DNA from: Patescibacteria group bacterium | GTDB lineage: Bacteria; Patescibacteriota; Patescibacteriia; PEXW01 | Direction: 5' to 3' | DNA: 64,000 nt | NCBI GenBank assembly: GCA_038063455.1 | Contig: JBBTVB010000002.1 | Span: forward strand, 65,296-129,295 | Shown here: positions 2,706 to 47,679 of the stretch, in pieces | How positions within the stretch are numbered: the stretch's first letter is position 1 | How the letters are laid out: every line of letters starts with the position of its first letter | Notes under the pieces: generated by a model | The model's database searches: none | Seen by the model: the letters and a program-made list of their open reading frames with translations, nothing else | What the model was told of the DNA's origin: nothing | Position numbers and translations under genes: made by a program

Positions 2706-2867
2706 CACCCGTTCGATTCCCCCAATCCGGGGCCCCCACGAAGTTGGCGCGCAACGCAGTGAGCACGACTTCGTGGGGTTAAGCGAGGCTTCGCATCGAG
2801 AGCGGAGCTTTTACCGGTCACGGCAAAACGCAGCTCGACGTGCGAAACGAGCTGGTAGCGCCAAGGG
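2706..2867 (-). repeat. tandem repeat copy 1 (162 nt; period 221 nt)
   Basis: 161/162 identical to 2927..3088 (only A2813 vs G3034); ends with the last 15 nt of tRNA-Glu (CCCTTGGCGCTACCA, minus strand). Confidence 0.95.
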
Positions 2868-2930
2868 CCTGCCTGCCGGCAGGCAGGGAATCGCCCCTGA
2901 CGGGGCCGGGGTGCTACGCATGCTCGCACC
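2853..2930 (-). pseudogene. tRNA-Glu remnant: 3' acceptor/CCA end retained, body replaced by three GC hairpins
   Basis: occupies the position of tRNA-Glu in the other repeat unit; keeps CCCTTGGCGCTACCA and a GGGAATCG-CCCC T-arm trace; 20-nt palindrome CCTGCCTGCCGGCAGGCAGG inserted at the acceptor/T-stem junction; no cloverleaf. Confidence 0.55.
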
Positions 2931-2933
2931 CGT
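2906..2933. repeat. G-first hairpin motif copy A (CCGGGGTGCT-N8-TCGCACCCGT)
   Basis: shares both arms with 17670..17698 and 18353..18380. Confidence 0.7.
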
Positions 2934-3088
2934 TCGATTCCCCCAATCCGGGGCCCCCACGAAGTTGGCGCGCAACGCAGTGAGCACGACTTCGTGGGGT
3001 TAAGCGAGGCTTCGCATCGAGAGCGGAGCTTTTGCCGGTCACGGCAAAACGCAGCTCGACGTGCGAAACGAGCTGGTAGCGCCAAGGG
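2927..3088 (-). repeat. tandem repeat copy 2 (162 nt), overlapping the 3' end of tRNA-Glu
   Basis: see copy 1; contains an 11-bp stem CCCCACGAAGT/ACTTCGTGGGG, TTTGCCG-GTCA-CGGCAAA, and a GTTCGATTCCCC segment that is an inverted copy of the tRNA-Glu T-arm. Confidence 0.95.
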
Positions 3089-3148
3089 GAATCGAACCCC
3101 TATTTCTTGGATGAGAACCAAGTGTCCTAACCGGTAGACGATGGCGCC
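3074..3148 (-). tRNA. tRNA-Glu (anticodon CUC), CCA encoded
   Basis: manual cloverleaf: GGCGCCA/TGGCGCT acceptor (G1-U72), GTCT/GGAC D-stem, CTTGG-TTCTCAT-CCAAG anticodon arm, AGGGG-TTCGATT-CCCCT T-arm, ACCA. Confidence 0.9.
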
Positions 3149-3243
3149 CTAATATCTAAAAACGTGCAAATATGAGCCTACCTAATTACTCCCTAAGTAT
3201 CAAGAGTTACAACTTCGCAGCTAATTTAACAATTTTTGCAGAA

Positions 3244-3486
3244 TTATGGCAACGCTCGGAGTGCCAATACGTAAACCAAAACAGACAAAACTTGTAAGGC
3301 AATAAAACTCATGATTGGTATCGTGACATTTAATACTGGTTCTAATGTATTAACAGAAGTGCGTTGGAGATTAATTTTAAGTACAAACAACGCTATAATG
3401 CTTAAAGGGTAAAGGGGGTACTGAAAAAAATTAATAATATTTTCAGCGATACTCTGTGAATCGCTACATCCAAGGCTGGCGTACAC
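3244..3486 (-). CDS. hypothetical membrane protein fragment (80 aa), in frame with 3541..3882 across one TAA
   Basis: AT-rich ORF; hydrophobic; the frame continues from the upstream ORF after a single stop. Confidence 0.3.
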   Translation of the reverse strand: MYASLGCSDSQSIAENIINFFQYPLYPLSIIALFVLKINLQRTSVNTLEPVLNVTIPIMSFIALQVLSVLVYVLALRALP

Positions 3487-3540
3487 AGGGTTGGCCCCAG
3501 TAATACTTGCAAAAAAATCAATTATGCTAAATGCACTAAC

Positions 3541-3882
3541 TTACGACTTACTCAATAGAAAAGGTAATACCATGATTATAATCGACATTCCTGCTAACCA
3601 ATAGACTATCGAAAGTACAGGAGACCACAAAATTTTGTACTTAGAAAAATACTCACGTAATTTTTTTCTTGGCCACAGAAGCCATAGAAGAATAAACCAT
3701 GCTACTGTTAGCATCAAAAAAAATACGCTTCCTGTCAAATAAGAAGGTGGGCAAGCAGTGGTATCGCCTACATTTTCAATAGTTAATCCGAAAACCTTAC
3801 TCGGAAACATTGTGACTCCTAATATGCAAAAGGAACTTAAAATAATTGTCTTTTGAGCTAACAAGAAATATTTATTAGTCAT
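3541..3882 (-). CDS. hypothetical membrane protein (113 aa)
   Basis: N-terminal signal/TM helix plus two further TM helices; AT-rich island next to tRNA-Glu. Confidence 0.45.
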   Translation of the reverse strand: MTNKYFLLAQKTIILSSFCILGVTMFPSKVFGLTIENVGDTTACPPSYLTGSVFFLMLTVAWFILLWLLWPRKKLREYFSKYKILWSPVLSIVYWLAGMSIIIMVLPFLLSKS

Positions 3883-3898
3883 ACAAATTTGTATTTTG

Positions 3899-4888
3899 TT
3901 ACAACTTCGCGGCCAGCTCTACCAGCCGGTTGGAATAGCCCCACTCGTTGTCGTACCACGCCAGTACGCGGACCAGGTTGCCGTTCACTTGGGTGGAGAG
4001 CCCATCCACAATGGCCGAGTGCGGATTGTCCACGATGTCTGACGATACTAAAGGTTCCATGGAAAATTCCATGATGTTCTTCAGCTTGGACTCTGCAGCT
4101 TTCTTGAGCGCGGCGTTTACTTCGGCGGCGTCGCGTGGCGCGCGCTTGGCAACGAACACAAAGTCGGTAATCGACCCGCAGGGCGTGGGCACGCGCAGGC
4201 TAATCCCCTGCATGCGGTCTTTTAACGTAGGCACGGTTTGAGCCGCGGCCTTGGTGGCGCCGGTGGTGGTGGGGATAATATTAAGCGCAGCCGATCGGGC
4301 GCGGCGCAAGTCTTTGTGCGGTAAATCGAGGATGCGCTGGTCGTTAGTATAGGAATGGATGGTATTCATCATGCCCCGTTCAATCCCGAACGTTTGCTCC
4401 ATAACCAATGCCACGGGCGAGAGGGAATTCGTGGTGCAGGAAGCATTGGAAATAACCTTGGGCTTGGTTTTGAGCACGTGGTCGTTCACGCCCAGCACCA
4501 CGGTTGCATCTGGGTCGTCGGCCGGGGCGGAAATAATGACTTGTTTAGCGCCAGCTTGCAGGTGCAGCGCCGCCTGGTCCCGCTTGGTAAACACGCCTGT
4601 GCATTCCAGCACCACATCAACTTTGAGTTTTGCCCATGGCAACTTGGTGGGATCTTTTTCCGCAAACACCTGCATGCTGTGCTTGCCAACAGTAATCGTC
4701 TGGCCTTTTACCTTCACGTCCTCAGCCAGCACACCATGCACCGAATCGTACTTCAACAGGTGCGCGTTAGTCGCCGCGTCAGTAAGGTCGTTTACCGCCA
4801 CAAAGGTTAATTTTGCATTGCGCAGGCCGGCACGAACCGCCATGCGGCCAATGCGACCAAAACCGTTAATTGCTACGCGGGTAGGCAT
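3899..4888 (-). CDS. gap: glyceraldehyde-3-phosphate dehydrogenase, type I
   Basis: INGFGRIGR NAD motif, SNASCTTN active-site motif, WYDNEWGYS C-terminus. Confidence 0.97.
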   Translation of the reverse strand: MPTRVAINGFGRIGRMAVRAGLRNAKLTFVAVNDLTDAATNAHLLKYDSVHGVLAEDVKVKGQTITVGKHSMQVFAEKDPTKLPWAKLKVDVVLECTGVFTKRDQAALHLQAGAKQVIISAPADDPDATVVLGVNDHVLKTKPKVISNASCTTNSLSPVALVMEQTFGIERGMMNTIHSYTNDQRILDLPHKDLRRARSAALNIIPTTTGATKAAAQTVPTLKDRMQGISLRVPTPCGSITDFVFVAKRAPRDAAEVNAALKKAAESKLKNIMEFSMEPLVSSDIVDNPHSAIVDGLSTQVNGNLVRVLAWYDNEWGYSNRLVELAAKL

Positions 4889-4909
4889 GTGTGTAGGGTA
4901 AAAGAAGAG

Positions 4910-5788
4910 TTAAATATTGGCTTTGCCGGTGCTACCAAGCGCGCGCAACTTGCTGGCGACCAGTTCTTGAATTGCAACCATGCCTGGCTTAAAAATAATG
5001 CGCGGATCATATGCATCGGGGTCGCTCTTTAGGGTATTACGCAGTGCATCGACAAAAGCTAGCTTGAGCTCAGTGTTCATGTTGACCACCCGGATGCCGT
5101 GCTGAATGGCTTCTTTCAAAGACGCGGCACTCACCCCAGAAGCGCCGTGCAGCACCAAGGGCGTGTGCGGAATAGCTTGGCCAATCTCATCCAGCCGATC
5201 CAGGTCCAGGCTGTGGGTAGCGCCTTTGCGCATTTTCACCACCCCGTGCACGTTCCCCACTGCCACGGCCAGGGTATCCACGCCCGTGTCGGCCACAAAC
5301 TTTTTGGCTTCTTCCGGCTTGGTCATAAACGGCTCGCGTTCGACTAGGGTCATGGCTTCTTCCAGACCTTTCACCACGCCGAGCTCCCCTTGCACCCACA
5401 CTTCTTTGCGGTGCGCGTAGTCCACGGCTTGCTTGGTAAGAATAACATTCTCTTGCATGGGCATGTCTGACGCATCAATCATGATGGAAGAAAACCCAGC
5501 TTGCACGCAGGCGGCCACGCTGCGGAACGACTTGCCGTGGTCCAGATGGAGCGCGACCGGAATTGCACCGGCTTCGTCCCGCGCCACGTGCTCGACAATG
5601 CTGGTGATGACTTTCAAACCAGCGTAGGCAATGGTATTTTCGGAAACTTGCAAAATGACTGGGGATTTTTCCTGCACGGCCGCGCGCACCACGGCCAGCG
5701 TGGTTTCCACATTCTCCACGTTAAAGGCGCCAACGGCGTAGTCGCGGGCGATGGCATCGTGTATGAGCTCTTTAATGTGCGTGAGCAT
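4910..5788 (-). CDS. fba: fructose-bisphosphate aldolase, class II
   Basis: GAFNV, HLDHG, VLHGASG motifs of class II FBA. Confidence 0.93.
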   Translation of the reverse strand: MLTHIKELIHDAIARDYAVGAFNVENVETTLAVVRAAVQEKSPVILQVSENTIAYAGLKVITSIVEHVARDEAGAIPVALHLDHGKSFRSVAACVQAGFSSIMIDASDMPMQENVILTKQAVDYAHRKEVWVQGELGVVKGLEEAMTLVEREPFMTKPEEAKKFVADTGVDTLAVAVGNVHGVVKMRKGATHSLDLDRLDEIGQAIPHTPLVLHGASGVSAASLKEAIQHGIRVVNMNTELKLAFVDALRNTLKSDPDAYDPRIIFKPGMVAIQELVASKLRALGSTGKANI

Positions 5789-5791
5789 AGG

Positions 5792-6541
5792 TTAAATGAG
5801 TTGCGTAATGAGCTGCTTGAACGTGGTGGGATTCAGGCTGGAGCCACCCACGAGCACGCCGGCGATGGCGTCGCTATCCACAAACGACGCAACGTTGATG
5901 GGCGTGGTGCTGCCGCCGTACAAAATCGGCACGCTGTCGGCACCAGTGGGCAGCACTTCGCGCAAGGTGCTGCGAATAATGCGCGCCATGGTAAATGCGT
6001 CACTAGGCTCGATAGACTGGCCGGTGCCAATGGCCCACACCGGTTCGTACGCCACAATCAGTGAAAGGGAGGGGAAAGCACTCAAGAGCTCCACCCCACG
6101 GGTAACTTGTTCCAGCACCACCACTTCGTGTTGCTGTTTGCTGCGCTGCTCGTAGGTTTCGCCCACGCAGAGCACGGGCGTAATGCCGTGGGCCACAGCC
6201 TGCTGCACCTTGCGACTAACGTCATGGTCGGTTTCGTGGAAGTGCGCGCGCCGCTCGGAGTGGCCGCACAGCACGACGCTACAGCCCAAATCGACGAGCA
6301 TATCCATGGAGGTCTCGCCCGTGAACGCGCCATGCTCTTCCCAGTGCGCGTTCTGTGCGCCCCAACGAATAGGTGTGCCGCGCAGAGCTTCGGCGACCGC
6401 TGGAATAACCGACGCCGCCGGGCAAATAGTCACGCTCGCCGAGTGCAGCAGCTGCTGGCCTTGCAGCAACGTATCCATGAACACCATAGCTTCTTTGCTA
6501 TTCATGTTCATTTTCCAATTGCCAATGACGATAGGCTTCAT
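5792..6541 (-). CDS. tpiA: triosephosphate isomerase
   Basis: GNWKMN, GHSERR, AYEPVWAIGTG motifs. Confidence 0.96.
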   Translation of the reverse strand: MKPIVIGNWKMNMNSKEAMVFMDTLLQGQQLLHSASVTICPAASVIPAVAEALRGTPIRWGAQNAHWEEHGAFTGETSMDMLVDLGCSVVLCGHSERRAHFHETDHDVSRKVQQAVAHGITPVLCVGETYEQRSKQQHEVVVLEQVTRGVELLSAFPSLSLIVAYEPVWAIGTGQSIEPSDAFTMARIIRSTLREVLPTGADSVPILYGGSTTPINVASFVDSDAIAGVLVGGSSLNPTTFKQLITQLI

Positions 6542-6642
6542 GATTTTGGAAGAGTTATAAGGATAAAGGAATGGAAGTAAGTAAGGTCAGAAGGTATGGA
6601 AGGAGGTGGGAATGCATCTTACTAGCATCCATCCCCATTACC

Positions 6643-7632
6643 TTATGACTTTACCACCTGCCAGACGTGTGCGCCAAAACCCCAGCGGAGCAACGCGTCG
6701 GCGTCGGCAAAACGGTCGTCCGACGTAGGCGACCCGAGCAACACGAGCAGGAGCTCGTGACCATCGACCTGCGCTTGCACCGCTAGGTTGTACCCGGCCT
6801 CATCGAGAAAACCGGTTTTTGCTGCAACAATGGTGTACCCCGAATCGTGCACGAGTTCGCTCGTGGTCTGCACCACAAAACTGCGGCTGCCAGTGCGTAC
6901 TCGATAACTCGTCTGGCCAGCAAATTCTCGAAGCGTCGGGTTGCTAAACGCAGTATGGGCCAGCACCGCAACATCCTGCGCCGAACCAACATTTCCCGCT
7001 GCTAGCCCAGAGCCCTCTACCACCTGCACAGTACGGGCGCCTTGGGCCACAGCAAACTGCTGTAACCGGCCGGCAAACAAACCTGCGGTCCGGGCCAACG
7101 CCAGCACCGCATTATTCGCGCTGCCAATAATACTGGCGGCGAGCAAGTCTTTGTAGGTCACCCGTTCTCCTACACGCACGTCCAGCTTGCTCACCCCAGT
7201 GCCGGGTTCCACCACGTTGGTAATGTCATTGGTATGGAAGTCAGCAGGAATAGTGTACGCGGCCTCGAGCCGTGGTGCCGTTGCCAGGTACGCGCTGGTG
7301 GTTATGAGTTTGGTAAGGCTTGCCAGTGGGCGCACGGCAGTACGGTTGCGTTCCCACACAATTGTTCCGGTTTCGACATCGAGCAAAATGCCAGCCGGGG
7401 CAGTAATCGTCGGGCTGGCCGCCGAGCCAGAGAGCCGCACGGGTGCCACCCACTGTTCGGCAAACGCACCCGCAACTGCTGGCTGGCTGCTCTGCAGTTG
7501 TGGGTAGGCAATAAAAACGTAACTCATAACCATACACGCCGACACCATGCCACCAACCATAAAGGTAGCAAGCGTAAGCAACACGTGGTTGCGTCTAGAC
7601 AGCGGGGAGATTTTCTTCTTGTGGGTTGGCAT
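6643..7632 (-). CDS. D-alanyl-D-alanine carboxypeptidase (serine peptidase S11, PBP5/6-like)
   Basis: N-terminal TM anchor; SLTK (SxxK), SAN (SxN) and KTG motifs. Confidence 0.85.
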   Translation of the reverse strand: MPTHKKKISPLSRRNHVLLTLATFMVGGMVSACMVMSYVFIAYPQLQSSQPAVAGAFAEQWVAPVRLSGSAASPTITAPAGILLDVETGTIVWERNRTAVRPLASLTKLITTSAYLATAPRLEAAYTIPADFHTNDITNVVEPGTGVSKLDVRVGERVTYKDLLAASIIGSANNAVLALARTAGLFAGRLQQFAVAQGARTVQVVEGSGLAAGNVGSAQDVAVLAHTAFSNPTLREFAGQTSYRVRTGSRSFVVQTTSELVHDSGYTIVAAKTGFLDEAGYNLAVQAQVDGHELLLVLLGSPTSDDRFADADALLRWGFGAHVWQVVKS

Positions 7633-8161
7633 CGGGGTTGAGCAGCTTCAATAAAGTTTCGTGGTCGTGAAGCTTGAGGTAGTCCGGGAGTTCGTCCACC
7701 TTGGCCAGGCCCAGGAAGCGGACAAAGTCGTGCGTTACCTGATATACGGTCGTGGCTTTGGTTTTGTCGTACGCAGCTTCCACCAAACCACGAATCAACA
7801 GGTTACGCAGGATGAGACTGCAGTTGACGCCGCGAATTTGCTCGAGCTCGGCTTTGGTCACCGGGCCGCGGTACGCCGCGATAGTGAGTGTTTCCAAGCT
7901 CGGCTTCGTCAGCTCGCTCGATACTTCTTCTTTCGCATAGGCCTGGGCCAGGCTGCGCACGTCTGGGTGCGTCACCATTTGGTAGCTGTCGCTTGCCTTC
8001 TGTAGAAGCAGGCCACTCGAACGAGATTCGTATTGCGTCACGAGCGCATCGGCGGCTTTTTCAACGTCAGTCTTTTTTGCCTCGGTGAGTTCGCAAAGTT
8101 TCTTTACCGAGAGCGGCCGGCCGGCCAGGAAGAGTAAAGCTTCAATTTTTTGCTCGAGCAT
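7595..8161 (-). CDS. scpB: segregation and condensation protein B
   Basis: KIEALLFLAGRPLSVKKL and RGPVTKAELEQIRGV winged-helix motifs; start taken at the ATG (the ORF-track start at 8206 is TTG). Confidence 0.85.
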   Translation of the reverse strand: MLEQKIEALLFLAGRPLSVKKLCELTEAKKTDVEKAADALVTQYESRSSGLLLQKASDSYQMVTHPDVRSLAQAYAKEEVSSELTKPSLETLTIAAYRGPVTKAELEQIRGVNCSLILRNLLIRGLVEAAYDKTKATTVYQVTHDFVRFLGLAKVDELPDYLKLHDHETLLKLLNPDANPQEENLPAV

Positions 8162-8168
8162 AAAAGGG

Positions 8169-9505: not shown

Positions 9506-9524
9506 AGGTTTGGTGAGTTAAGAT

Positions 9525-9821: not shown

Positions 9822-9825
9822 GTAT

Positions 9826-17547: not shown

Positions 17548-17623
17548 TGGTGGGTCCGCTGGGAATCGAACCCAGAACCTTGGGCTTAAAAGGCCCCTGC
17601 TCTACCAATTGAGCTACGAACCC
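17548..17623 (-). tRNA. tRNA-Lys (anticodon UUU), CCA encoded
   Basis: manual cloverleaf: GGGTTCG/CGGACCC acceptor, GCTC-AATTGGTA-GAGC D-arm, loop CTTTTAA, CTGGG-TTCGATT-CCCAG T-arm. Confidence 0.92.
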
Positions 17624-17659: not shown

Positions 17660-17728
17660 CCCTGCTCTTCCGGGGTGCTCCCGATGGGTCGCACCCGTCC
17701 CTATGGGACCCAATTGAGCTACGAACCC
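17660..17728 (-). pseudogene. 5' fragment of tRNA-Lys (nt 1 to about 30) with a 41-nt hairpin insertion in the D-loop
   Basis: 19 nt identical to the tRNA-Lys 5' end (GGGTTCGTAGCTCAATTGG), then the insert, then GAGCAGGG; no anticodon or T arm. Confidence 0.7.
17670..17698. repeat. G-first hairpin motif copy B (CCGGGGTGCTCCCGATGGGTCGCACCCGT)
   Basis: 27/28 identical to 18353..18380; nested stems GGGTGC/GCACCC and CCC/GGG. Confidence 0.85.
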
Positions 17729-18323: not shown

Positions 18324-18352
18324 AACTGCACCTCTCCTGGTCGTTGACCATC

Positions 18353-18380
18353 CCGGGGTGCTCCCAATGGGTCGCACCCG
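18353..18380. repeat. G-first hairpin motif copy C, in the 5' leader of the exonuclease gene
   Basis: CCGGGGTGCTCCCAATGGGTCGCACCCG. Confidence 0.85.
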
Positions 18381-18562
18381 CCTGCGGCTCCTCTGAGAGG
18401 AGAGGACACTTGAACAAGCTATCTTCATTTACTTTTACAGACCTGAATATATGTAGAACGTCAGCCGGGGGTCTGGGGGTGGATCGCCGCGGGGCCGGGC
18501 ATCCAGGGTGCTCTGCCGTCCTACGGAGGCGACCGCGTCGAGCCACCTCCAGCAGTCTTTGG

Positions 18563-21054: not shown

Positions 21055-21159
21055 TGCATCCCTCCCTCTCCCTTTGGGAGAGGGTCTCGGGGTGAGAGAC
21101 CAACGAGACAAGACTCGTCTCTGGATCCCCTCACCTGCCCTTCGGGCATCCTCTCCCAG
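21055..21159. repeat. GC-rich hairpin cluster (CCCTCTCCC-TTT-GGGAGAGGG ... CCTCTCCC-AGA-GGGAGAGG)
   Basis: several 8-9-bp stems in the convergent recR/rplU spacer; same style as 61225..61310. Confidence 0.7.
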
Positions 21160-21265
21160 AGGGAGAGGATGATTCTGCATTTAGAAGGAACACATAACAA
21201 AACCGACAGAGCCGCCGCCGTTGGCGGGATAAACAAGCTCTGCCCCTACTTTCTATATCATATCC

Positions 21266-21580: not shown

Positions 21581-21720
21581 ACAAAAAGCCTGATTGCGAA
21601 GTAGAGTGAAAGTAGCACCAACCGGAGCCTAGGTCAAGGCCCGGTGAGCTGGCCCATAGCGTTGACCAAGCGCGGGCGGCCCTGCCCGCGCAGGTACAGG
21701 GGCCTGCGCTAGGGATTTTT

Positions 21721-21814: not shown

Positions 21815-22315
21815 TTAGAGCAAAAACAACGGCCGGTTATTTTTGATGGTCACCATATCCCCTGGCTGCCAGCTGGCAGCCACTCCACTTGAAACTTCCA
21901 GCACCTGGCTGGCAGGATAGGCCGGACGGACCCGGGCTGGCTCCGCACCTTTCGCCGGTGGCGGGATATTGCGACTAATATCGATAATCTTGCCATCGTG
22001 TATCCAGACAATATCTAAAGAGAGGCGCATATCTTTCATCCAGAATTCGTAACTACCTGCCTCGGAAAATACAAAAAGCATGCCTTGCCCGGTCGGTAAA
22101 TTTCGGCGGCCGCTGAGCCCGCGGGCTTTTGCGTGGTTAGAGCGAGCAACCTCGACATGCATGTCCTGGCCCATGATGCTCACCGTCACCGAGCTGCCAA
22201 TGAGCCGCTGCCAGTAGTAGGGCGTGTAATCAGTAATCTCATCGCCACCCGTAACCCAGAAAAGGCCAAAGAGTATGACGCTGACGATGAGTAGGGTTAT
22301 GCGGCTAGGGTTCAT
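21815..22315 (-). CDS. DUF192-domain protein with N-terminal TM anchor
   Basis: ARGLSGR...GMLFVF...FWMKDMRLSLDIVWI pattern of DUF192/COG1430; start at the ATG giving MNPSRITLLIV. Confidence 0.78.
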   Translation of the reverse strand: MNPSRITLLIVSVILFGLFWVTGGDEITDYTPYYWQRLIGSSVTVSIMGQDMHVEVARSNHAKARGLSGRRNLPTGQGMLFVFSEAGSYEFWMKDMRLSLDIVWIHDGKIIDISRNIPPPAKGAEPARVRPAYPASQVLEVSSGVAASWQPGDMVTIKNNRPLFLL

Positions 22316-37362: not shown

Positions 37363-38547
<1,185 letters not shown>

Positions 38548-38647
38548 GGTCGTAAACGTTAAGTGATAGATGAAGTTACGAAGGTATGGGAAAACTACAT
38601 TTCGAGGCAAAGGCGAGTATACCAAGGTGTTGCCATTACGTCAAATC

Positions 38648-40738: not shown

Positions 40739-40816
40739 ACAGTGTAGGAAAAAGGCTGGTTATAGAAATGGCGGCTCATGCGCCGCGAGATAAATGCCTA
40801 AAACGAAAAGGCGTGG

Positions 40817-41281: not shown

Positions 41282-41284
41282 ATA

Positions 41285-41701
41285 TTACGAAGGTTTCTTG
41301 GCGCCGTAGAGACTGCGACCTTGCTTGCGATTAGCCACGCCCTGGGTGTCGTACACGCCGCGGACAATGTGGTAGCGTACACCCGGCAAGTCTTTCACGC
41401 GGCCACCGCGGATGAGCACGATGGAGTGTTCCTGCAAGTTGTGGCCAATACCTGGGATGTAGGCCGTCACTTCCATGCCATTCGACAAACGGACACGCGC
41501 GATCTTGCGGAGGGCGGAGTTTGGCTTTTTCGGGGTGGTGGTCGTCACTTTTACGCACACGCCACGCTTAAACGGACTGCCGGCCGGGAGTTCGTGGCGG
41601 TAGCGCTTGAGCGCGTTAAGCACCGGCTGGAGGGCCGGGGTCTTGGACTTGCGGCGGGCGTTGAAGCGCCCTTTGCGTACGAGTTGATTAACGGTAGGCA
41701 T
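41285..41701 (-). CDS. rpsL: 30S ribosomal protein S12
   Basis: [37 protein letters not shown]. Confidence 0.97.
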
Positions 41702-41789
41702 TTTTAGGTAGAAGCAAATGACCGCGGTGGTGGCTGGCCCCGCTGTCGAATGAAACGTTGGGGAAAAACACGAGGTTCAAGCAGGTGAG

Positions 41790-41818
41790 AGCGTACCATG
41801 CTCCCCCGTCCACGTCAA
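41790..41818 (-). promoter_or_regulatory. candidate sigma70-like promoter of the str operon (TTGACG-N17-TACGCT)
   Basis: hexamers and 17-nt spacing read on the minus strand, about 85 nt upstream of rpsL. Confidence 0.4.
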
Positions 41819-41852
41819 CCCCGCACCACCTTTTCAAAAAGGTGGTGCGGGG
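41819..41852. repeat. palindromic hairpin CCCCGCACCACCTTTT-CA-AAAAGGTGGTGCGGGG
   Basis: perfect 16-nt arms; directly downstream of the M50 protease stop; family member. Confidence 0.9.
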
Positions 41853-41863
41853 TCAAGGCTGGG

Positions 41864-42493
41864 CTAGGGGGTAATCAACCGAAAAGCAAAACTCTCAACC
41901 GCTTGGAAAATTGGCCCGAGCACCGGCTGGCCAAACACGATAATAAACAGCAAGATGACAAAACCATAGCGCTGGATGGTTTCCACCAGCCCGACATATT
42001 GCTGGGGCAGCAACGTCAAGAGCTTGGAGCCGTCCAGCGGCGGGATCGGCAAGAGGTTGAAGAGCATAAGCACGACATTGAATTGCACCAAAAGTGCCAA
42101 AAACGTGAGCAAAAGGTTATCGACGGGCAAGTTGGCATACTGCAGCACTAGCCGCATGATAATCCCGAAAAAAACCAAGCCGAGCAGGTTGGATGCTGGG
42201 CCAGCTAGGGAAACGAGCGACGGCCCCCAACGCTTGGCTTTGAGGTTGTAGGGGTTAAACGGCACCGGCTTGCCCCAACCAAACCCAAACAGGACGAGGA
42301 CGAGAAACCCCATAGGGTCCACGTGCGAGAGCGGGTTAAGTGTGACGCGCCCTTCGAGGTCAGCGGTACTATCCCCTTGCAGTTTGGCCACCAGGGCGTG
42401 GCTAAATTCGTGGATGGTGATAGCGACGATGATTGCGGCTACCCAGGCCAGGGCAACCGCAGGATCGGAGAAAAGAATGTTGAGGAAGTTCAT
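41864..42493 (-). CDS. site-2 protease family (M50) zinc metalloprotease
   Basis: HEFSHALVA zinc motif in a TM helix, NLLPIPPLDG motif; start at ATG 42493 because the track N-terminus is translated hairpin. Confidence 0.85.
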   Translation of the reverse strand: MNFLNILFSDPAVALAWVAAIIVAITIHEFSHALVAKLQGDSTADLEGRVTLNPLSHVDPMGFLVLVLFGFGWGKPVPFNPYNLKAKRWGPSLVSLAGPASNLLGLVFFGIIMRLVLQYANLPVDNLLLTFLALLVQFNVVLMLFNLLPIPPLDGSKLLTLLPQQYVGLVETIQRYGFVILLFIIVFGQPVLGPIFQAVESFAFRLITP

Positions 42494-42502
42494 AAGAGGC
42501 TT

Positions 42503-42540
42503 GCCCAGCACCACTTTTTGAAAATAAAGTGGTGCTGGGC
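42503..42540. repeat. palindromic hairpin GCCCAGCACCACTT-N10-AAGTGGTGCTGGGC
   Basis: perfect 14-bp stem; 11 nt (CCCAGCACCAC) identical to the GIY-YIG inverted repeat. Confidence 0.9.
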
Positions 42541-42598
42541 TTGTCAGGATGAAGGGATTCTGGTAGGCTACGAACCACTGCACTCCCAACTATACCGT

Positions 42599-42778
42599 AT
42601 GGCCCGAACCTGCACCATCTGTGGACGCGGCAGCCTGAAAGGCAACCAGCGCAGCCACTCTAAAATCGCTACCATCAAACGGCAGCACGTCAACATTCAA
42701 ACCGTCTTCAAGGGCGGCGTGCGGGTTGATGCGTGCACGTCCTGCATCCGCACCGTAGCGCACCAAGCCAGTAAGTAG
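42599..42778 (+). CDS. rpmB: 50S ribosomal protein L28 (59 aa)
   Basis: MARTCTICGRGSLKGNQRSHSKIATIKRQHVNIQ...CTSCIR; internal ATG of track ORF 42323..42778. Confidence 0.9.
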   Translation: MARTCTICGRGSLKGNQRSHSKIATIKRQHVNIQTVFKGGVRVDACTSCIRTVAHQASK

Positions 42779-42797
42779 AAGCTAGTTGTTGCGTGCT

Positions 42798-42820
42798 CCG
42801 GCCAAAAGCCGGCTTTTTCT
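42798..42820 (+). terminator. rho-independent terminator
   Basis: CCGGC-caaaa-GCCGG followed by CTTTTTCTT. Confidence 0.55.
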
Positions 42821-42882
42821 TGACCAAAAATTACTAAAGCAGTAAGGTTGCTTGAAACAAAAAAACTGAAGGTGAGGTATAC

Positions 42883-43461
42883 ATGAACTCTTTCTGGAGT
42901 TGGATCGAAGAGTTCTTTGAAACTCATGATGATATTCCCCCCAAAGCCGTTAATGCAATTATCGCTGTTGGTTGTGACGTTTCAGCCGATGGTACTGGAC
43001 CGAGTCCCATGTCCCGCGCGATAGCTGAAAGAGTACTCGAACTTTCACAAACACATCCGAATAAGTGCATGATTTTTGCTGGTGGGTATCGTTACCCAGC
43101 GGCTAGTCAAAACCCATGCGAATCAGTGCACATGTATAACGTCATCAGTCGTCGCGCGCCAATTGCAGATATTCAGATAGAAACTGAAAGTAACCGGACG
43201 TATTTGAACGCTGACGAGACCTTAAAAATTATGCATAGTTTGAGCTATACGTCAGCAATTGTAGTTGCTCAGCAATGGCACGCGCGGCGCGTGCGGGCAA
43301 CGTTTCGAAAACGTTGGAAAGACAAAGGCATACGCATCTACGTAATCAAAGCCCGCTCAACCTATGGTGCTTGCTCGCAAAAACGGCTTCACCATTTCGT
43401 AAAGTTTGTTCTTTGGGACACCCTGGCCTACCTGTACGGGATTTTGAAGGGCTACAACTAG
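42883..43461 (+). CDS. DUF218/YdcF-like protein
   Basis: AIIAVG...IFAGGYRY...ESNRTYLNA...VVAQQWHARR matches the DUF218 (SanA/YdcF) pattern; GAAGGTGAGG SD. Confidence 0.65.
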   Translation: MNSFWSWIEEFFETHDDIPPKAVNAIIAVGCDVSADGTGPSPMSRAIAERVLELSQTHPNKCMIFAGGYRYPAASQNPCESVHMYNVISRRAPIADIQIETESNRTYLNADETLKIMHSLSYTSAIVVAQQWHARRVRATFRKRWKDKGIRIYVIKARSTYGACSQKRLHHFVKFVLWDTLAYLYGILKGYN

Positions 43462-43466
43462 GCCCT

Positions 43467-43503
43467 ACTGGCATCAATAATTTTGATGCCAGTATTTTTT
43501 ATT
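43467..43503. terminator. bidirectional terminator
   Basis: ACTGGCATCA-N7-TGATGCCAGT followed by ATTTTTTATT. Confidence 0.7.
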
Positions 43504-44242
43504 TGCCTAAAAATGCCACGAGCCCCTCGGGCCGAAGCAACGGCCAGTCGTGCACACCCGGCACCCGGTGGAGCGTCGCCTGCGGTATGGCAGCAACAAG
43601 CTCTTCGCCAACGCTCACGGGTACAAAGGTGTCCTGCTCGCCCCACAGAATGGTGACCGGCACCGAAATGTTCTTTGCTTCTTCGCGCACGTCAAGGTGC
43701 TTGCACTCATCCGCCAAACGAAAAAGGTCCCGCGTATTACGCGCAAGGTTGTAGCCAAAGGGCTTTACAACGTTCTGCATGTACTTGTGCGGTGCATGCG
43801 CAATATTCTGCAATTCTTTTTGCAGCCACTGCACGTTCCAGCCTGTAGCCGTGCGCGCAATTGGGGCGCCGAGCGGATCGATGAGGATAAGCTTGCGCAG
43901 CACCCCAGCCGGCAACTGTGCAGCTGCCACCATAGCCACCGCCCCGCCGAACGAATGGCCGACGAGAGTGGCGTCCTGCAAGCCGAGATGCAGAATCCAG
44001 TCTGAATATAATTTGCCAAAATCTTGCACCCCAAAATCTGGTCGTGGCATGGCTTGGGATTTGCCGTGCCCGACGAGGGAGGGTGTGTACACATGGTGTT
44101 GCTGCGCGAGTAACTCACGAAGATGCCGCGTGCCGCCAGCATGCACGCTCCAACCGTGCAAAAAGACCAACGGCTCCCCTGCCCCAGCGCTATAGCTGTG
44201 GATGTGCAGACCGTTGACGTGGTGGGAGTGCTCGGTGTGCAT
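43499..44242 (-). CDS. alpha/beta-fold hydrolase
   Basis: HGW oxyanion region, GHSFGG nucleophile elbow, C-terminal HD..P. Confidence 0.8.
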   Translation of the reverse strand: MHTEHSHHVNGLHIHSYSAGAGEPLVFLHGWSVHAGGTRHLRELLAQQHHVYTPSLVGHGKSQAMPRPDFGVQDFGKLYSDWILHLGLQDATLVGHSFGGAVAMVAAAQLPAGVLRKLILIDPLGAPIARTATGWNVQWLQKELQNIAHAPHKYMQNVVKPFGYNLARNTRDLFRLADECKHLDVREEAKNISVPVTILWGEQDTFVPVSVGEELVAAIPQATLHRVPGVHDWPLLRPEGLVAFLGK

Positions 44243-44329
44243 GTCTTTATCTTACAGGCCTTGACGTTGATACACCACTATGGCAGTCTCAAACAAAACC
44301 ATAACCAAACCCAGAATGGAGAACAGGTC

Positions 44330-45052
44330 ATGTCAAATGTACTTGAACAAAATGCCATACAGAAACTAGCGGAAAGACTGCGAGACCAAACGGGTCAGCC
44401 AGTACTTATCTTGGTAGAATGCCAAGTGCCATCGGAAACTGAAGAATTTTTTTCTCCTCGCGTGCCGCTAGATAGAAAAAGTGACTCTTTAGACAATGTA
44501 CGAGGCAAAGCTTTTGGTGTACTGAATGGTGAAACGCTAACTGTGGACAACGAAAATCATCCAGGATTACTTGGCATACCAGTATCGTGCTGTAGCACAA
44601 AGATGAACTTGCGTGATGATATTACTGTTCAGCATGGTCATTTCTGGCTAAGCGGAATTGGCAAAGACCTCATGGTAAATAGCAACACCTATGCCACCGT
44701 ACTCATCGGCGCACAAGAAATAGGCGAATGGTTACATGAAAACCGTCACCATCCCTTCTCGCGAACCTCTAAAGAATTACTGGAAATATGCGCTCTGGCA
44801 CGAAGGCTACAAGTCAGCCTCCAACAATGGGGGCCTATATATAGTGTCGTTGAAAAAACAGTCAAAAGGCTGCGGGCTGATGCCGAAGAAAGTAAACGTA
44901 CACTTCATGAATCTGCAATGAAAATGCTCGGGGAGACAAAAAAAGTGAATTTCTCCGCAATTGACAGCTATTCAGAGATCAGTAAAGATGTACTACAACT
45001 TACGGGTGAAGCGCTCCCTAAGTTGGAACTGCAGCTCACCTTGACTACGTAA
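44330..45052 (+). CDS. hypothetical protein (240 aa), lower-GC ORFan
   Basis: ATG after a GGAGAA SD; no family recognised. Confidence 0.5.
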   Translation: MSNVLEQNAIQKLAERLRDQTGQPVLILVECQVPSETEEFFSPRVPLDRKSDSLDNVRGKAFGVLNGETLTVDNENHPGLLGIPVSCCSTKMNLRDDITVQHGHFWLSGIGKDLMVNSNTYATVLIGAQEIGEWLHENRHHPFSRTSKELLEICALARRLQVSLQQWGPIYSVVEKTVKRLRADAEESKRTLHESAMKMLGETKKVNFSAIDSYSEISKDVLQLTGEALPKLELQLTLTT

Positions 45053-45075
45053 AAAACCAAAACATTGCCTTGCCT

Positions 45076-45104
45076 AGAGGCCGACTAATACTCGGCCTCT
45101 TTTG
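45076..45104 (+). terminator. rho-independent terminator
   Basis: AGAGGCCGA-ctaatac-TCGGCCTCT followed by TTT. Confidence 0.65.
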
Positions 45105-45111
45105 CTATACT
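45103..45111 (+). promoter_or_regulatory. extended -10 promoter TGCTATACT; predicts a leaderless transcript
   Basis: TGnTATACT; the ATG at 45118 lies 7 nt after the -10. Confidence 0.45.
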
Positions 45112-45117
45112 CAGACT

Positions 45118-45585
45118 ATGCCCAACAAGTTGCTTACCTTAGTCCTTCCCTTGTCAGATAGTCGCCTGCTCTTAGGCATGAAAAAACGTGGATTTGGTGC
45201 TGGTCGCTGGAATGGGTTTGGTGGCAAGGTGGAAGCGGGAGAAAGCATCGAAGCCGGAGCCAAACGGGAAATACAGGAAGAGGCCGGCATAATTGTTCAT
45301 ACGCTGCATGCGGTTGGCGTGTTGCTGTTTAGCTTTGCAGGCCAAGAACAAACATTGGAAGTGCACGTTTTTACCGCAACCACATGGCAAGGCGAGCCGC
45401 AAGAAACCGAAGAAATGCGGCCGCAGTGGTTTGACTTTGACGCTATCCCGTACCAAGAAATGTGGTTGGATGACAAACACTGGCTGCCACTGGTGCTCGA
45501 TGGGAAACACATTCGCGGAATTTTCCATTTTCAAGATCAACAACACTTACTTTCATACCAGGTTGAAGTTGTACCCACTCTATGA
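45118..45585 (+). CDS. NUDIX hydrolase, MutT/MTH1-like
   Basis: GFGAGRWNGFGGKVEAGESIEAGAKREIQEEAGI Nudix box; the track start at 45070 is a TTG inside the terminator. Confidence 0.88.
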   Translation: MPNKLLTLVLPLSDSRLLLGMKKRGFGAGRWNGFGGKVEAGESIEAGAKREIQEEAGIIVHTLHAVGVLLFSFAGQEQTLEVHVFTATTWQGEPQETEEMRPQWFDFDAIPYQEMWLDDKHWLPLVLDGKHIRGIFHFQDQQHLLSYQVEVVPTL

Positions 45586-46040
45586 CTATACCCATGTGGC
45601 CGCTTATACCGTTCACGCTTATCACCGCCAGCCTGCACGCCTGGATGGAAATTGAAATTGAAGGACCGCATGGCTGGGCATCAAAACTTCCAACTGCACC
45701 TTTTGATAATGCAATTACGCGTATTCTGTTTGGCTCCCCGATTACGCGCTACCACGTGGCCATGGCCCTTACCATCCTGTCCTTTGCGCATATTCCGATC
45801 CTCTTCGTCCAGCCATGGTCAGTGGCAAATGAACTCATCATTGTCGGCTACACCATCTTGCACCTGACGCTGGAAGACTTTTTGTGGTTTGTCTTTAACC
45901 CGGCGTTCGGACTGCGCAAATTCAAACGCGAGCATATCTGGTGGCACAAGCGCTGGTTTCTCAAGCTGCCGCTGGGGTACTGGCTGGCCACGCCCATTGC
46001 CGTCTTCTTGATTTTGGTGGGCATGGATAAAATTTTATGA
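45582..46040 (+). CDS. hypothetical membrane protein (152 aa)
   Basis: 4 hydrophobic helices; ATGA overlaps on both sides imply an operon with the neighbours. Confidence 0.55.
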   Translation: MTIPMWPLIPFTLITASLHAWMEIEIEGPHGWASKLPTAPFDNAITRILFGSPITRYHVAMALTILSFAHIPILFVQPWSVANELIIVGYTILHLTLEDFLWFVFNPAFGLRKFKREHIWWHKRWFLKLPLGYWLATPIAVFLILVGMDKIL

Positions 46041-47284
46041 CCAAGAATACCCGCTCAGTACTTATCGTTGGCAGCATTGTTGTGCTTGCAGCAGCGGGCT
46101 ATGGCGCGTACTTTGCCTACCGCAATTTGCGCGGGGCCGGCCCGGCGATTAAACCGCTGTCGGCTGACATTACCGAACTGCTCAATGTCAACACATCTGG
46201 CAACACCAATACCAGCACAAATGTCAGCACGCAAGTGACGCGCAACACGACCGGCTTCCCACTCACGCTCCCAGCAGGGTACAGCATTCGCGTGCTGGAA
46301 AAAAACCTGCCCAGTGCTCGCGACATTGCCTTGGATAGCAATGGCAATGTCTGGGTGAGCCAGCTTGCAGAGGGTAAAGTAGTACGTTTGGATATGCAGA
46401 ATGACAGCGTAACGAAAAAAAATGAAGTATTTACCGGCCTGGGCAACCCGCACGGTTTGGCGTTTGATCCGGCTGACCCGAAGATGCTGTACGTTGCGCA
46501 GGAACGCAGCCTCTCCCGCGCTGAGGTGAGCGAGCCGACGCCGAAGTTGCAAAAAATTCTGGACTTGCCCAACGGCAACAACCACAACCGCCGAACCTTA
46601 GCTTTTGGTCCGGATGGCAAGTTGTACGTAAGCATTGGCTCAACCTGTAACGTGTGTAAGGAAGACGATGCACGGAGTGCGACGGTCTATTCCCTCAACA
46701 AAGATGGTAGCGACTTCAAGGTTTTTGCTACCGGCCTGCGCAATGCAGCGTTCTTAGCCATCCGCCCGGCCGACGGTAAACTCTGGGCCACAGAAAATGG
46801 CCGCGACCTTATTGGCGACGATATCCCGCCGGATGAAGTGAACATTGTGGAACACGGCAAGTTCTACGGTTGGCCGTACTGCTACGGCAAGAATGTTCAG
46901 GATACCAGCTTTGACCGCTCGAGCAGCGCCAAGGAGCGTTGCACCAGTGCCACACCGTCGCACATTAATCTGCAGGCTCACTCTGCACCACTGGGCTTAG
47001 CCTTTATTCCCGATACCGAGGCCTGGCCCGCTGATTGGCGCGGGGACTTGCTGGTCGCTTTCCATGGTTCCTGGAATCGGACAGACCCAACGGGTTACAT
47101 GCTCGTACGCATCGATATCAACGCGGATGGGTCAGCAGGTGAAACCTATACGTTCATTTCCGGCTGGCTTACCAAGGCTGGTGGCGCGCTGGGCCGGCCG
47201 GTGGACGTACTGCCGACGGAGGATGGGAAGCTCTATATCACTGACGATAAAGCTGGCCTGGTGTACATCGTGGAAAAATCCTAA
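46037..47284 (+). CDS. PQQ-dependent sugar (glucose/sorbosone) dehydrogenase-like beta-propeller, membrane-anchored
   Basis: GLGNPHGLAFDP, LAFGPDGKLYVSIGS, ENGRDLIGDDIPPDEVN, GWPYCYG motifs. Confidence 0.8.
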   Translation: MTKNTRSVLIVGSIVVLAAAGYGAYFAYRNLRGAGPAIKPLSADITELLNVNTSGNTNTSTNVSTQVTRNTTGFPLTLPAGYSIRVLEKNLPSARDIALDSNGNVWVSQLAEGKVVRLDMQNDSVTKKNEVFTGLGNPHGLAFDPADPKMLYVAQERSLSRAEVSEPTPKLQKILDLPNGNNHNRRTLAFGPDGKLYVSIGSTCNVCKEDDARSATVYSLNKDGSDFKVFATGLRNAAFLAIRPADGKLWATENGRDLIGDDIPPDEVNIVEHGKFYGWPYCYGKNVQDTSFDRSSSAKERCTSATPSHINLQAHSAPLGLAFIPDTEAWPADWRGDLLVAFHGSWNRTDPTGYMLVRIDINADGSAGETYTFISGWLTKAGGALGRPVDVLPTEDGKLYITDDKAGLVYIVEKS

Positions 47285-47307
47285 CATGGGTTTACTTTGC
47301 TGAGTCA

Positions 47308-47336
47308 CTGGGGTACAATGCCCCAGCTTTTCTTTC
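47308..47336 (+). terminator. rho-independent terminator
   Basis: CTGGGG-tacaatg-CCCCAG followed by CTTTTCTTTC. Confidence 0.6.
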
Positions 47337-47388
47337 ACTTTGTGTGTCTGGGTCGGGGTGTGGCGCAGTTGGTAGCGCGCTTGCATGG

Positions 47389-47420
47389 CCCCGCACCATT
47401 CGCTCCGCTTAGGTGCGGGG
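47389..47420. repeat. hairpin H1 CCCCGCACC-N14-GGTGCGGGG inside the anticodon loop of the outer tRNA-Pro copy
   Basis: perfect 9-bp stem; arms identical to H2 and to the first 9 nt of the 41819 hairpin. Confidence 0.9.
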
Positions 47421-47450
47421 TATAGGTGCAAGATTCTCATCTCGCTGGGT

Positions 47451-47523
47451 CGGGGTATAGCGCAGTTGGTAGCGCGCTTGCATGGGGTGCAAGAGGCCGC
47501 CGGTTCAAGTCCGGCTACCCCGA
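47451..47523 (+). tRNA. tRNA-Pro (anticodon GGG); CCA not encoded (ACCC)
   Basis: manual cloverleaf: CGGGGTA/TACCCCG, GCGC-AGTTGGTA-GCGC, CTTGC-ATGGGGT-GCAAG, GCCGG-TTCAAGT-CCGGC; embedded in an 18-bp leader/trailer helix (47440-47457 with 47516-47533). Confidence 0.9.
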
Positions 47524-47550
47524 CCCAGCGAGAGGCAGTGTTCAAGCCTG

Positions 47551-47582
47551 CCCCGCACCCGAGCGTAGTGAGTGGTGCGGGG
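47551..47582. repeat. hairpin H2 CCCCGCACC-N14-GGTGCGGGG between the T-arm and 3' acceptor strand of the outer copy
   Basis: perfect 9-bp stem; its loop is 9/14 identical to the reverse complement of the H1 loop. Confidence 0.9.
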
Positions 47583-47679
47583 GTCCCGCCACCCCGACCC
47601 AGACATGGAAGGCAATGCCAAAAAAATTACACGACTGCTTGTCGCTTACAGGATAAATACTCTACAGTAGGAACAGCCT

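Follow-up and report, generated by a model that had tools for sequence, protein, structure and literature searches.

Each of the three intact tRNA genes in a 64,000-nucleotide (nt) stretch of the genome of a Patescibacteria group bacterium (assembly GCA_038063455.1, contig JBBTVB010000002.1, positions 65,296–129,295; hereafter the window) is accompanied by a broken, hairpin-bearing copy of the same tRNA gene. The architecture spans several Patescibacteria (Kerfeldbacteria-like) genomes, in which a working tRNA gene lies inside or beside a broken copy with repeated GC-rich hairpins in its loops. The hairpins are clean insertions in fixed loops and belong to multi-copy families, one of which, hpA, follows a strand rule. 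Working genes can be nested within inverted repeats, outer copies were once functional, single hairpins were gained in individual lineages, and inverted copies of tRNA T-arms were templated. We hypothesize that hairpin-bounded cassettes are copied into the loops of tRNA genes by a strand-specific and structure-directed process acting on DNA, and that the larger cassettes bring a replacement tRNA gene or a part of one. We give this explanation slightly less than an even chance.

ARAGORN and Rfam identify exactly three intact tRNA genes in the window, Glu(CTC), Lys(TTT), and Pro(GGG), and each has a partial same-strand copy at a distance of at most 250 nt. An earlier note on this DNA had claimed that every tRNA locus pairs an intact tRNA with a damaged copy of the same isoacceptor within 250 nt, which ARAGORN, Rfam, and repeat comparison confirm. 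There are no further tRNA-like fragments elsewhere in the window, and no tRNA was found in the approximately 9 kb to its left and 7 kb to its right. The hpA pattern occurs three times in the window, compared with 0.16 occurrences expected from shuffled sequences. The 3′ half of the tRNA-Pro locus is base-for-base identical in an independent assembly (L089; L-numbers denote loci from other assemblies compared with the window), and the same architecture turns up in unrelated projects that produced metagenome-assembled genomes (MAGs). The count against shuffles, the independent assemblies, and the recurrence rule out chance and assembly artefact. The pattern at all three loci of the window is real and well above chance.

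The tRNA-Glu locus lies on the minus strand, and its elements are described here in the direction of the tRNA. The intact tRNA-Glu(CTC) gene (3074–3148; ARAGORN, Rfam tRNA score of 61.4 bits) is followed by the first copy of a recurrent element, U (2949–3072, minus strand; nhmmer E = 1.4e-26). Next comes invT (2932–2944, minus strand), recognized from inverted k-mer matches as an inverted copy of tRNA-Glu positions 53–64, which comprise the T-loop and the T-stem 3′ strand. InvT pairs with CGATTCCC of the 3′ fragment described below (helix 1). It adjoins a hairpin hpA in T-loop context (CCGGGGTGCTACGCATGCTCGCACCCG; 2906–2932, plus strand; pattern scan) and the double-hairpin partner of hpA, a small GC hairpin GCCCCGTCAGGGGC (2893–2906, minus strand). 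The tRNA-Glu 3′ fragment, nt 56–76 (2853–2893, minus strand), consists of two pieces (2853–2867 and 2888–2893) separated by a perfect 20-nt palindrome, CCTGCCTGCCGGCAGGCAGG (2868–2887), in the T-stem 3′ strand. The palindrome is a clean insertion, and its excision gives back the exact sequence GATTCCCCTTGG. The second copy of U (2728–2851, minus strand; nhmmer E = 4.2e-26) belongs to the 162-nt direct repeat D1. A second invT and a truncated first arm of hpA, GGGGGAATCGAACGGGTG (2706–2723, minus strand), end a tandem array with a 221-nt unit. A bidirectional terminator-like hairpin (2658–2686) closes the tRNA-Glu unit and a convergent upstream gene. The array comprises 1.9 copies of the unit (2706–2867 is 99% identical to 2927–3088); its first copy starts within the working gene, and the repeat contains the 3′ fragment. 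The earlier note had overlooked this tandem repeat as well as hpA and invT.

The tRNA-Lys locus contains a 5′ fragment instead. The intact tRNA-Lys(TTT) gene (17548–17623, minus strand; ARAGORN, Rfam) is preceded, 36 nt upstream, by a fragment (17660–17728, minus strand) made of nt 1–19 (17710–17728) and nt 21–29 (17660–17668). The two parts are separated by a 41-nt double hairpin (17669–17709) located in the D-loop after G18G19, in place of U20. The double hairpin comprises an hpA in D-loop context (17670–17697, plus strand) and an adjoining small hairpin GTCCCTATGGGAC (17697–17709). The fragment with D-loop hairpins recurs in L100, where the intact tRNA-Lys is identical to that of the window at 75 of 76 positions and hpA at 27 of 28; the 28-nt Lys fragment has about three differences, the small hairpin has a new sequence that still forms a hairpin, and the flanking spacers are unalignable. 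L014 is nearer to the window than L100 by its flanking genes (79–80% identity), and in place of the 5′ fragment its Lys(TTT) locus has a 3′ fragment of T-loop type, with different hairpins. Simple tandem duplication was rejected as the source of 5′ fragments, as the sequence upstream of the fragment is unlike the spacer preceding the intact gene.

The tRNA-Pro locus is nested and lies on the plus strand. The intact inner tRNA-Pro(GGG) gene (47450–47527; ARAGORN, Rfam) is located inside a split outer copy. The 5′ part of the outer copy (47348–47388) consists of the flank CTGGGT and nt 1–35; it matches the inner gene with 95% identity across 41 nt and agrees fully with the 5′ half of the intact L084 tRNA-Pro. 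The outer anticodon loop holds a clean 36-nt insertion (47389–47424) composed of the hairpin hpB1 (CCCCGCACC-N14-GGTGCGGGG) and TATA. The remainder of the outer anticodon arm (GGTGCAAGA) and the left inverted-repeat flank TCTCGCTGGGT (47425–47449) lead to the inner gene. On its other side are the right inverted-repeat flank ACCCAGCGAGA and an outer T-arm remnant GGCAGTGTTCAAGCCTG (47523–47550), followed by hairpin hpB2 (47551–47582), an inverted relative of hpB1 with 9 of 14 loop positions alike by eye. The outer T-stem 3′ strand, acceptor 3′ strand, and flank (GTCCCGC CACCCCG ACCCAG; 47583–47602, with the acceptor 3′ strand at 47590–47602) complete the outer copy and are identical to both the intact gene and the fragment of L082. 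The inner gene is derived relative to the outer copy and to relatives, from which it differs in the acceptor pair A7–T66, in A9, and in the T-stem; A7–T66 is a compensated change from the type common to the relatives. The predicted fold of the 260 nt of the locus is a single long, imperfect palindrome that carries the tRNA at its tip (−175.5 kcal/mol, z = −12).

Relatives of the tRNA-Pro locus were reached via the neighboring PQQ-dehydrogenase gene. L084 (64% amino-acid identity) has an intact tRNA-Pro, a 12-nt 5′ fragment, and a T-arm fragment. In L082 and L083 (81% identity), the intact tRNA-Pro has the T-stem and acceptor of the outer type of the window, and a 3′ fragment bears in its T-loop a hairpin orthologous to hpB2. 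The whole locus is inverted in these two contigs (L082:4352–4549 and L083:1781–1980) compared with the window (47348–47603), with breakpoints concealed by an extended acceptor inverted repeat of 13 bp, CTGGGTCGGGGTG. Both contigs stop inside the tRNA-Pro repeat; therefore, tRNA-Pro repeat loci break assemblies. In annotation, tRNA scanners overlook the interrupted copies. As a separate observation, a low-coverage Hainich contig (L090:1–215, compared with window 47230–47450) has an identical downstream protein, inner tRNA-Pro, and all 3′ sequence; its upstream sequence is wholly different and lacks the outer 5′ Pro copy, which reflects either a strain-level rearrangement or a chimeric assembly.

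The hairpin hpA has the consensus CCGGGGTGCT-N8/9-TCGCACCCG and is a multi-copy module in several Patescibacteria MAGs. A scan for the pattern across one genome per species returned single chance-like matches in GC-rich Actinomycetota and other taxa, and repeated matches in a few Patescibacteria/Kerfeldbacteria MAGs (JBBTRU, JBGSPR, CAIPSZ, JAUYFT, JBBTRK, and MHKF01) and in some MAGs labelled otherwise. The loci of MAG JBBTRU hold at least nine exact copies, four other MAGs contain several, and all are non-coding. In the sequence compared, 25 of the 34 copies of hpA have an intact tRNA no more than 250 nt away, whereas 7.8% would be expected from the share of sequence (p about 6e-21). All 25 near-tRNA copies are on the strand opposite to the tRNA (p about 6e-8). 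One further pattern match (L032:2387–2413) comes from Candidatus Endomicrobiellum, an AT-rich genome outside Patescibacteria, where a tRNA-Ser (3660–3746) has self-matches in its flanks; this case is either a chance match or the same phenomenon in another reduced symbiont.

Copies of hpA occur in three contexts. In the T-loop context, the intact tRNA is followed in turn by a terminator-like hairpin or U, invT, hpA, a small hairpin, the tRNA’s own nt 56–76, and U, with hpA set directly before C56. InvT repeats 10–15 nt of the adjoining T-arm exactly, in inverted orientation, and matches the local tRNA every time. In the D-loop context, a small hairpin and hpA follow the G18G19 of a 5′ tRNA part. 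The third context has no tRNA, and hpA is flanked by small hairpins within a CCTCTCC/GGAGAGG stem. It is represented in the window at 18331–18408 (plus strand, hpA at 18353–18380), about 45 nt upstream of the start of an RNase T-like exonuclease gene. This module is kept at the orthologous site L014:150–232, next to an exonuclease gene that is about 79% identical. The tRNA-free copies in L065 and L027 have the opposite orientation relative to the upstream gene. Modules resembling 18331–18408 occupy 3′ UTR-like positions in these two loci.

The modules have base-paired architecture. Among 15 T-loop modules, three helices are 93% paired, compared with 34–50% when the 3′ partners are slid. Eight pairs have changes on both sides, the outer helix formed by invT and the T-stem 3′ strand covaries with the neighboring tRNA, and in one hpA copy, at the tRNA-Gln of L025, a compensated change has turned a U-A pair into C-G. 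Read on the tRNA-sense strand, the loops of the small hairpins are C-GNA-G, a motif best known as an ultra-stable DNA mini-hairpin.

The theme of the three loci extends to related genomes. We counted tRNAs with a self-match, defined as a same-strand match of at least 12 nt within 400 nt of the intact tRNA. Self-matches were found for 27 of the 43 tRNAs in the window and in loci selected by their hairpins, a count that includes tRNAs that are mere bystanders to an hpA match, and for 1 of 8 tRNAs in control loci. An intact copy of the same tRNA accompanies the damaged one in every case examined, including all five metagenome loci picked solely by the D-loop module, of which two are Hainich contigs also present as L080 and L033.

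The positions of the inserts were determined by mapping fragments onto the adjacent intact gene. Clean hairpin insertions are present at defined cloverleaf positions in at least seven tRNA identities and belong to repeated families, in agreement with the proposal that small GC-rich palindromic elements insert into tRNA genes. The inserts are located in the D-loop after GG (Lys-TTT, Lys-CTT, three Tyr, and Val), in the anticodon loop (window Pro and L052 Tyr), between positions 55 and 56 of the T-loop (L052), in the T-stem (window Glu and L061 Glu), and at the junction of the D-arm and anticodon stem at positions 23/28 (L054 Phe, the inner gene included). Some junctions have small deletions, exemplified by the replacement of U20 and the loss of anticodon GGT. 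In folded tRNA, G19 and C56 pair in the elbow; hpA, which follows G19 in one context and precedes C56 in the other, is thus placed at two partner positions of the elbow, and we infer that this placement is relevant.

Insert sites in the D-loop, the anticodon loop, and the T-loop, together with complementary GC-rich sequences beside the halves, are reminiscent of the non-canonical introns and split or permuted tRNAs of archaea, and might suggest functional interrupted genes from the RNA of which the hairpins are removed. There is next to no chance that this is the case. Interrupted copies always have an intact neighbor and are themselves incomplete or decayed, lacking parts such as the acceptor 5′ strand or the T-arm and having disruptive substitutions; and the host is a bacterium with DnaB and a bacterial ribosomal operon. 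Predicted folds contain no bulge-helix-bulge, and by inspection the insert hairpins are self-contained and form no helix with the exons. The inserts, of 18–54 nt, also do not match group I introns, which occupy anticodon loops and have a P1–P9 core and more than 200 nt, and no Rfam intron match was found at E ≤ 5.

Removal of the inner gene and its inverted-repeat flanks restores a contiguous outer tRNA in the window Pro, L033 Tyr, L080/L062 Val, L071 Lys, L011 and L079 Thr, L054 Phe, and L102 Ser loci. The restored join in L033 is exact (GGGGCA|GACTG). The outer and inner copies differ in stems that are paired in both, including the Val acceptor of L080 (GGACGAT/ATCGTCC in the outer and GGGCGCG/CGCGCCC in the inner copy), the Val anticodon stem of L101 (CCACA/TGTGG and TTACA/TGTAA), and the T-stem of L052 (GTAGG/CCTAC and GAAGG/CCTTC). 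Because their stems stay paired despite the differences from the inner copies, the outer copies were once working genes. The inner gene of L079 is a Thr(TGT) within an outer copy of Thr(GGT) type. Fragments of the 5′ part are present upstream of intact genes at Lys, Tyr, Val, and Thr loci, and decay of tRNA-derived parts is seen in L016, L052, L071, and L100. The fragments are remains of older tRNA copies. An array of tRNA-Phe pieces, with repeated anticodon-arm fragments GGACTGAAAA, surrounds an intact tRNA-Phe in L054 (7500–7830); this intact gene is flanked by TCCCGCA...TGCGGGA inverted repeats.

The earlier note had explained the paired copies by hairpin insertion followed by duplication that rescues function. 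This explanation is supported in part: the hairpin insertions are borne out, and for the origin of the intact copy nesting or replacement fits better than rescue. Duplication as rescue leaves unexplained the intact gene nested in a split outer copy with inverted-repeat flanks, the compensated outer sequences of L080 Val and L101 Val, and the identity of the window’s outer Pro copy to the intact gene of relatives. It likewise does not account for the inverted T-arm copy beside hpA or for the fixed strand and cloverleaf position of the hairpins.

Inverted copies could also arise without a dedicated element. Stable hairpins and cloverleaf arms might stall replication, fold-back and serial template switching would then grow nested palindromes, and selection would keep one intact copy. 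InvT, with its exact inverted match to the adjoining T-arm of the local tRNA and its variable length, is what such copying is expected to leave. The resemblance of hpB1 to an inverted hpB2 on the opposite arm of one long palindrome, the Pro inversion breakpoints inside the extended acceptor inverted repeat, and the lack of target duplications and of a nearby enzyme gene point in the same direction. However, many tRNAs and genomes share the module order and the breakpoints (19/20 and 55/56), a reproducibility too high for error-prone switching. Identical hpA sequences are found at unlinked sites, and the compensated differences between inner and outer copies indicate import or replacement rather than local copying. 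We consider template switching without a dedicated element distinctly unlikely.

A 3′ tRNA fragment downstream of an intact gene is reportedly the classic attachment-site (att) duplication. The loci might therefore be scars of integration and excision by integrases, either att duplications or shrunken cis-mobilisable elements, which were later colonized by REP-like hairpins. The direct repeats from the T-loop or anticodon loop to CCA downstream of intact genes, such as the 21-nt repeat of nt 56–76 at the tRNA-Glu locus and in many relatives, resemble att duplications, as does the tandem accumulation in an array of 1.9 units. However, merely 110–220 nt lie between the repeats, with no credible open reading frame (ORF), integrase, or cargo. 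The copies are not limited to 3′ segments, and 5′ fragments upstream of Lys, Tyr, Val, and Thr genes and nested copies are not made by 3′-replacing integrases. The junctions contain an inverted T-arm copy and hairpins, and the hpA-type T-loop fragments lack a full core site, since the T-stem 5′ strand and T54–T55 expected of an attR core are missing. A search of IMG/VR gave no match to hpA and three matches to the U pattern, none of which has a tRNA at the locus; the match in L097 lies in AT-rich sequence, and all three are taken as chance matches. Integrase scars thus have only a slim chance of being the explanation. A phage or integrative-element origin was rejected as without support, given the absence of hpA and the chance nature of the U matches in IMG/VR.

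The modules are long-lived yet rearranged, as shown by the syntenic tRNA-Glu loci together with the comparison of the Lys loci. The locus of the GAPDH and tRNA-Glu genes is syntenic in six genomes with 72–78% nucleotide identity in GAPDH. The series invT, hpA, small hairpin, and nt 56–76 is located downstream of tRNA-Glu in all six. The spacer after tRNA-Glu is U in the window and L029 and contains terminator-like hairpins in the others. The 20-nt palindrome is present in two of the six orthologous loci (window and L061) and absent from L010, L029, L036, and L056. The loop subfamily of hpA differs between the orthologues. In L036 and L056, the T-arm of the tRNA differs, and both the fragment and invT carry the matching difference. 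Sharing of unchanged fragments by distant relatives had been named as a result that would make the fragments ancient and unconnected to the hairpins. The fragments are indeed shared at 72–78% GAPDH identity, but they are not unchanged and are still linked to hairpins.

Element U is about 124–135 nt long and begins right after the ...CCA-G of an intact tRNA (Glu, Arg, Ser, Gly, or Lys) or of a fragment. Fourteen matches have nhmmer E-values below 1e-15. Copies outside the window lie at L013:4146–4285, L040:1366–1504, and L055:3725–3853 and in L100 and L101. The element is composed of two domains with 35 base pairs, 23 of which have compensatory changes (RNAalifold, alignment A1), and contains the invariant motifs CTCGTT, AGCCTC, and CGTGCTC...GCGCC. 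U as a partner of specific tRNAs was rejected, as the GCGCCA motif is constant whichever tRNA precedes it. No Rfam family matches U, which may be an undescribed tRNA-trailer RNA. In Rfam 15, only the three tRNAs of the window reach the gathering score, and permissive scans, those of U and the hpA modules included, remain at chance level. A twister-sister match (47482–47554) scores 19.7 bits, compared with a gathering score of 34, and was dismissed as noise. A second recurrent tRNA trailer, CCA-TGAACCACTC...GGGTTCATGG-CAAGCC, forms a hairpin with a stem that takes in the encoded CCA end, and is duplicated along with 3′ fragments. It is found at L014:1073–1110 and 1257–1305, at L011:6365–6400, and downstream of tRNA-Gly in L025 and L076.

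The fragments probably lie within tRNA transcripts, because the only promoter-like sites precede the outer Pro copy and tRNA-Glu, and a terminator closes the Glu array. A promoter scan of the Lys locus found nothing, and a promoter in the AT-rich spacer there is a guess.

Probable co-transcription raises the alternative that the partial copies, hpA, and U are selected leader and trailer modules of precursor tRNAs, for which tRNA origin is mere history. Possible roles are leader-trailer processing stems, protein-binding hairpins at the tRNA-elbow position, and a small RNA derived from the trailer. Such a function would agree with the compensated pairs of U and the covariation in the T-loop modules, with modules kept at orthologous sites when the spacers have diverged past alignment, and with the single stem of about −175 kcal/mol that presents tRNA-Pro at its tip. 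The constant orientation of hpA to the tRNA also suits it, as do the hpA sites, which are partners of the elbow pair in the textbook structure. However, the reversed orientation of the non-tRNA hpA copies in L065 and L027 implies that one RNA orientation cannot suit all copies. The tRNA-derived parts decay, are truncated variously, and differ in arrangement between close relatives, and the hairpin subfamily switches at orthologous sites. The C-GNA-G loops recall a mini-hairpin generally known from DNA, and no Rfam family matches. We judge a selected RNA function to be unlikely as the main explanation; it may hold for some modules, which are conserved.

In the copying process that we favor, hairpin-bounded cassettes would be transferred, at the level of DNA and strand-specifically, into the loops of hairpin-forming DNA. 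The route would be insertion or fold-back copying with template switching, by an enzyme that would not be encoded nearby. Small cassettes of 20–50 nt, such as the 20-nt palindrome, hpA with its GNA-triloop mini-hairpin, and hpB, would land in the D-loop after G19, in the anticodon loop, and in the T-loop between 55 and 56. Large cassettes would consist of a whole tRNA gene between inverted repeats, of the 3′ part of a tRNA joined to U or to a terminator-like hairpin, or of a 5′ part with an AT-rich spacer. Insertion of a large cassette would replace the gene that it interrupts, and the displaced outer pieces would cease to be tRNA genes and remain in the transcription unit as leader and trailer. 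Re-copying or gene conversion would keep the hairpins uniform. A wider formulation is a possible but doubtful one: a structure-directed system, by a DNA or RNA route, would paste everything from 20-nt palindromes to whole tRNA genes into cloverleaf loops at elbow and anticodon sites, in serial “Russian-doll” replacement, with U and hpA as its functional RNA or DNA components.

Several points weigh against cassette copying. InvT needs templated inverted copying, which plain insertion does not explain. The fixed strand of hpA and its elbow-partner sites also fit a role at the RNA level. The modules persist at orthologous sites in genomes that are merely 72–78% identical in GAPDH, and the conservation of the modules between the window and L100 despite unalignable spacers fits selection as well as gene conversion. 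There are no consistent target-site duplications, and the junctions have ambiguous overlaps of 0–3 nt or small deletions. No transposase, integrase, HUH nuclease, or reverse transcriptase is present among the Pfam-assigned genes of the window and its flanks of about 9 and 7 kb, where many small ORFs carry no assignment. The compared data are MAGs or metagenome contigs throughout, and the loci were found via the hairpin itself and form a biased sample.

If the tRNA genes of these reduced, symbiotic bacteria are routinely invaded and replaced by hairpin-bounded cassettes, the most conserved genes of a genome would turn over in a new way. Such invasion would also suggest a new targeting rule for selfish DNA, directed at the loops of a folded cloverleaf instead of a sequence motif. 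The hairpin hpA, with its fixed strand and position, and U, with its covariation-supported structure at tRNA 3′ ends, are testable objects.

A literature search of limited coverage returned no description of this tRNA-hairpin architecture. Each of the known systems with which we compared it shares some features and fails at least one defining feature. The REP, BIME, and REPIN-RAYT repeats of Enterobacteria and Pseudomonas are likewise short GC-rich imperfect palindromes, present in many copies, extragenic, clustered, vertically persistent, and in part at orthologous sites, and hpA too is multi-copy and mostly extragenic. In contrast, the hairpins described here occupy fixed sites in tRNA-derived loops, keep one orientation relative to the tRNA, and go together with partial or nested tRNA copies. 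A GTAG-type REP head is not invariant in the hpA consensus CCGGGGTGCT..TCGCACCCG, with GTAG limited to one loop subfamily, and no HUH or transposase gene that could be a RAYT is found among the Pfam-assigned genes of the window and flanks, about 80 kb. The palindromic elements of Rickettsia (RPE) are also located inside genes of a reduced genome, RNA genes included. However, RPE-bearing genes remain functional, whereas invasion here leaves a broken copy, and the function falls to a second copy that is intact.

Repetitive hairpin-forming elements are known from sponge mitochondria, and tRNA pseudogenes are found beside functional copies in mitochondria. Mitochondrial GC clusters, the double-hairpin elements of Allomyces, and the sponge hairpin elements resemble those described here as mobile-looking GC-rich hairpins that invade intergenic DNA and structural-RNA genes. 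In contrast, the window is part of a bacterial chromosome, with defined tRNA-loop sites, tRNA genes nested in tRNA genes, and a 135-nt trailer. The inner tRNA cassettes, bounded by inverted repeats of 10–20 bp, and the hairpins, themselves inverted repeats, are similar to miniature inverted-repeat transposable elements. Those elements have target-site duplications of fixed length, which the junctions described here lack. Palindromic repeat elements that target genes are the nearest kind, and there is a real chance that the loci represent a new type of element that replaces tRNA genes.

The Pfam-assigned genes of the window and flanks are housekeeping genes, including the ribosomal operon, DnaB, RecR, glycolysis, and type IV pilus genes. 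A 492-residue protein encoded at 58889–60406 (minus strand), within the type IV pilus/prepilin peptidase cluster, has an N-terminal GIY-YIG nuclease domain (E = 3e-14), and the rest of its length carries no assignment. It is conceivable from this domain that the protein is a structure-specific nuclease, and nothing ties it to the hairpins.

An hpB-family hairpin (ACCCCGCACCACC...GGTGGTGCGGGGT; 41818–41853) is located in an ordinary intergenic spacer; therefore, the family is not exclusive to tRNA loci. More clusters of GC-rich hairpins lie in such spacers at 21064–21168, 21670–21691, 21863–21882, 42503–42540, and 61225–61280. Among them are hairpins of the CCTCTCC family, another perfect palindrome of 20 nt (TGGCTGCCAGCTGGCAGCCA), and a hairpin of the CAGCACCAC family. 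The hairpin repeats are thus genome-wide and not limited to tRNA loci.

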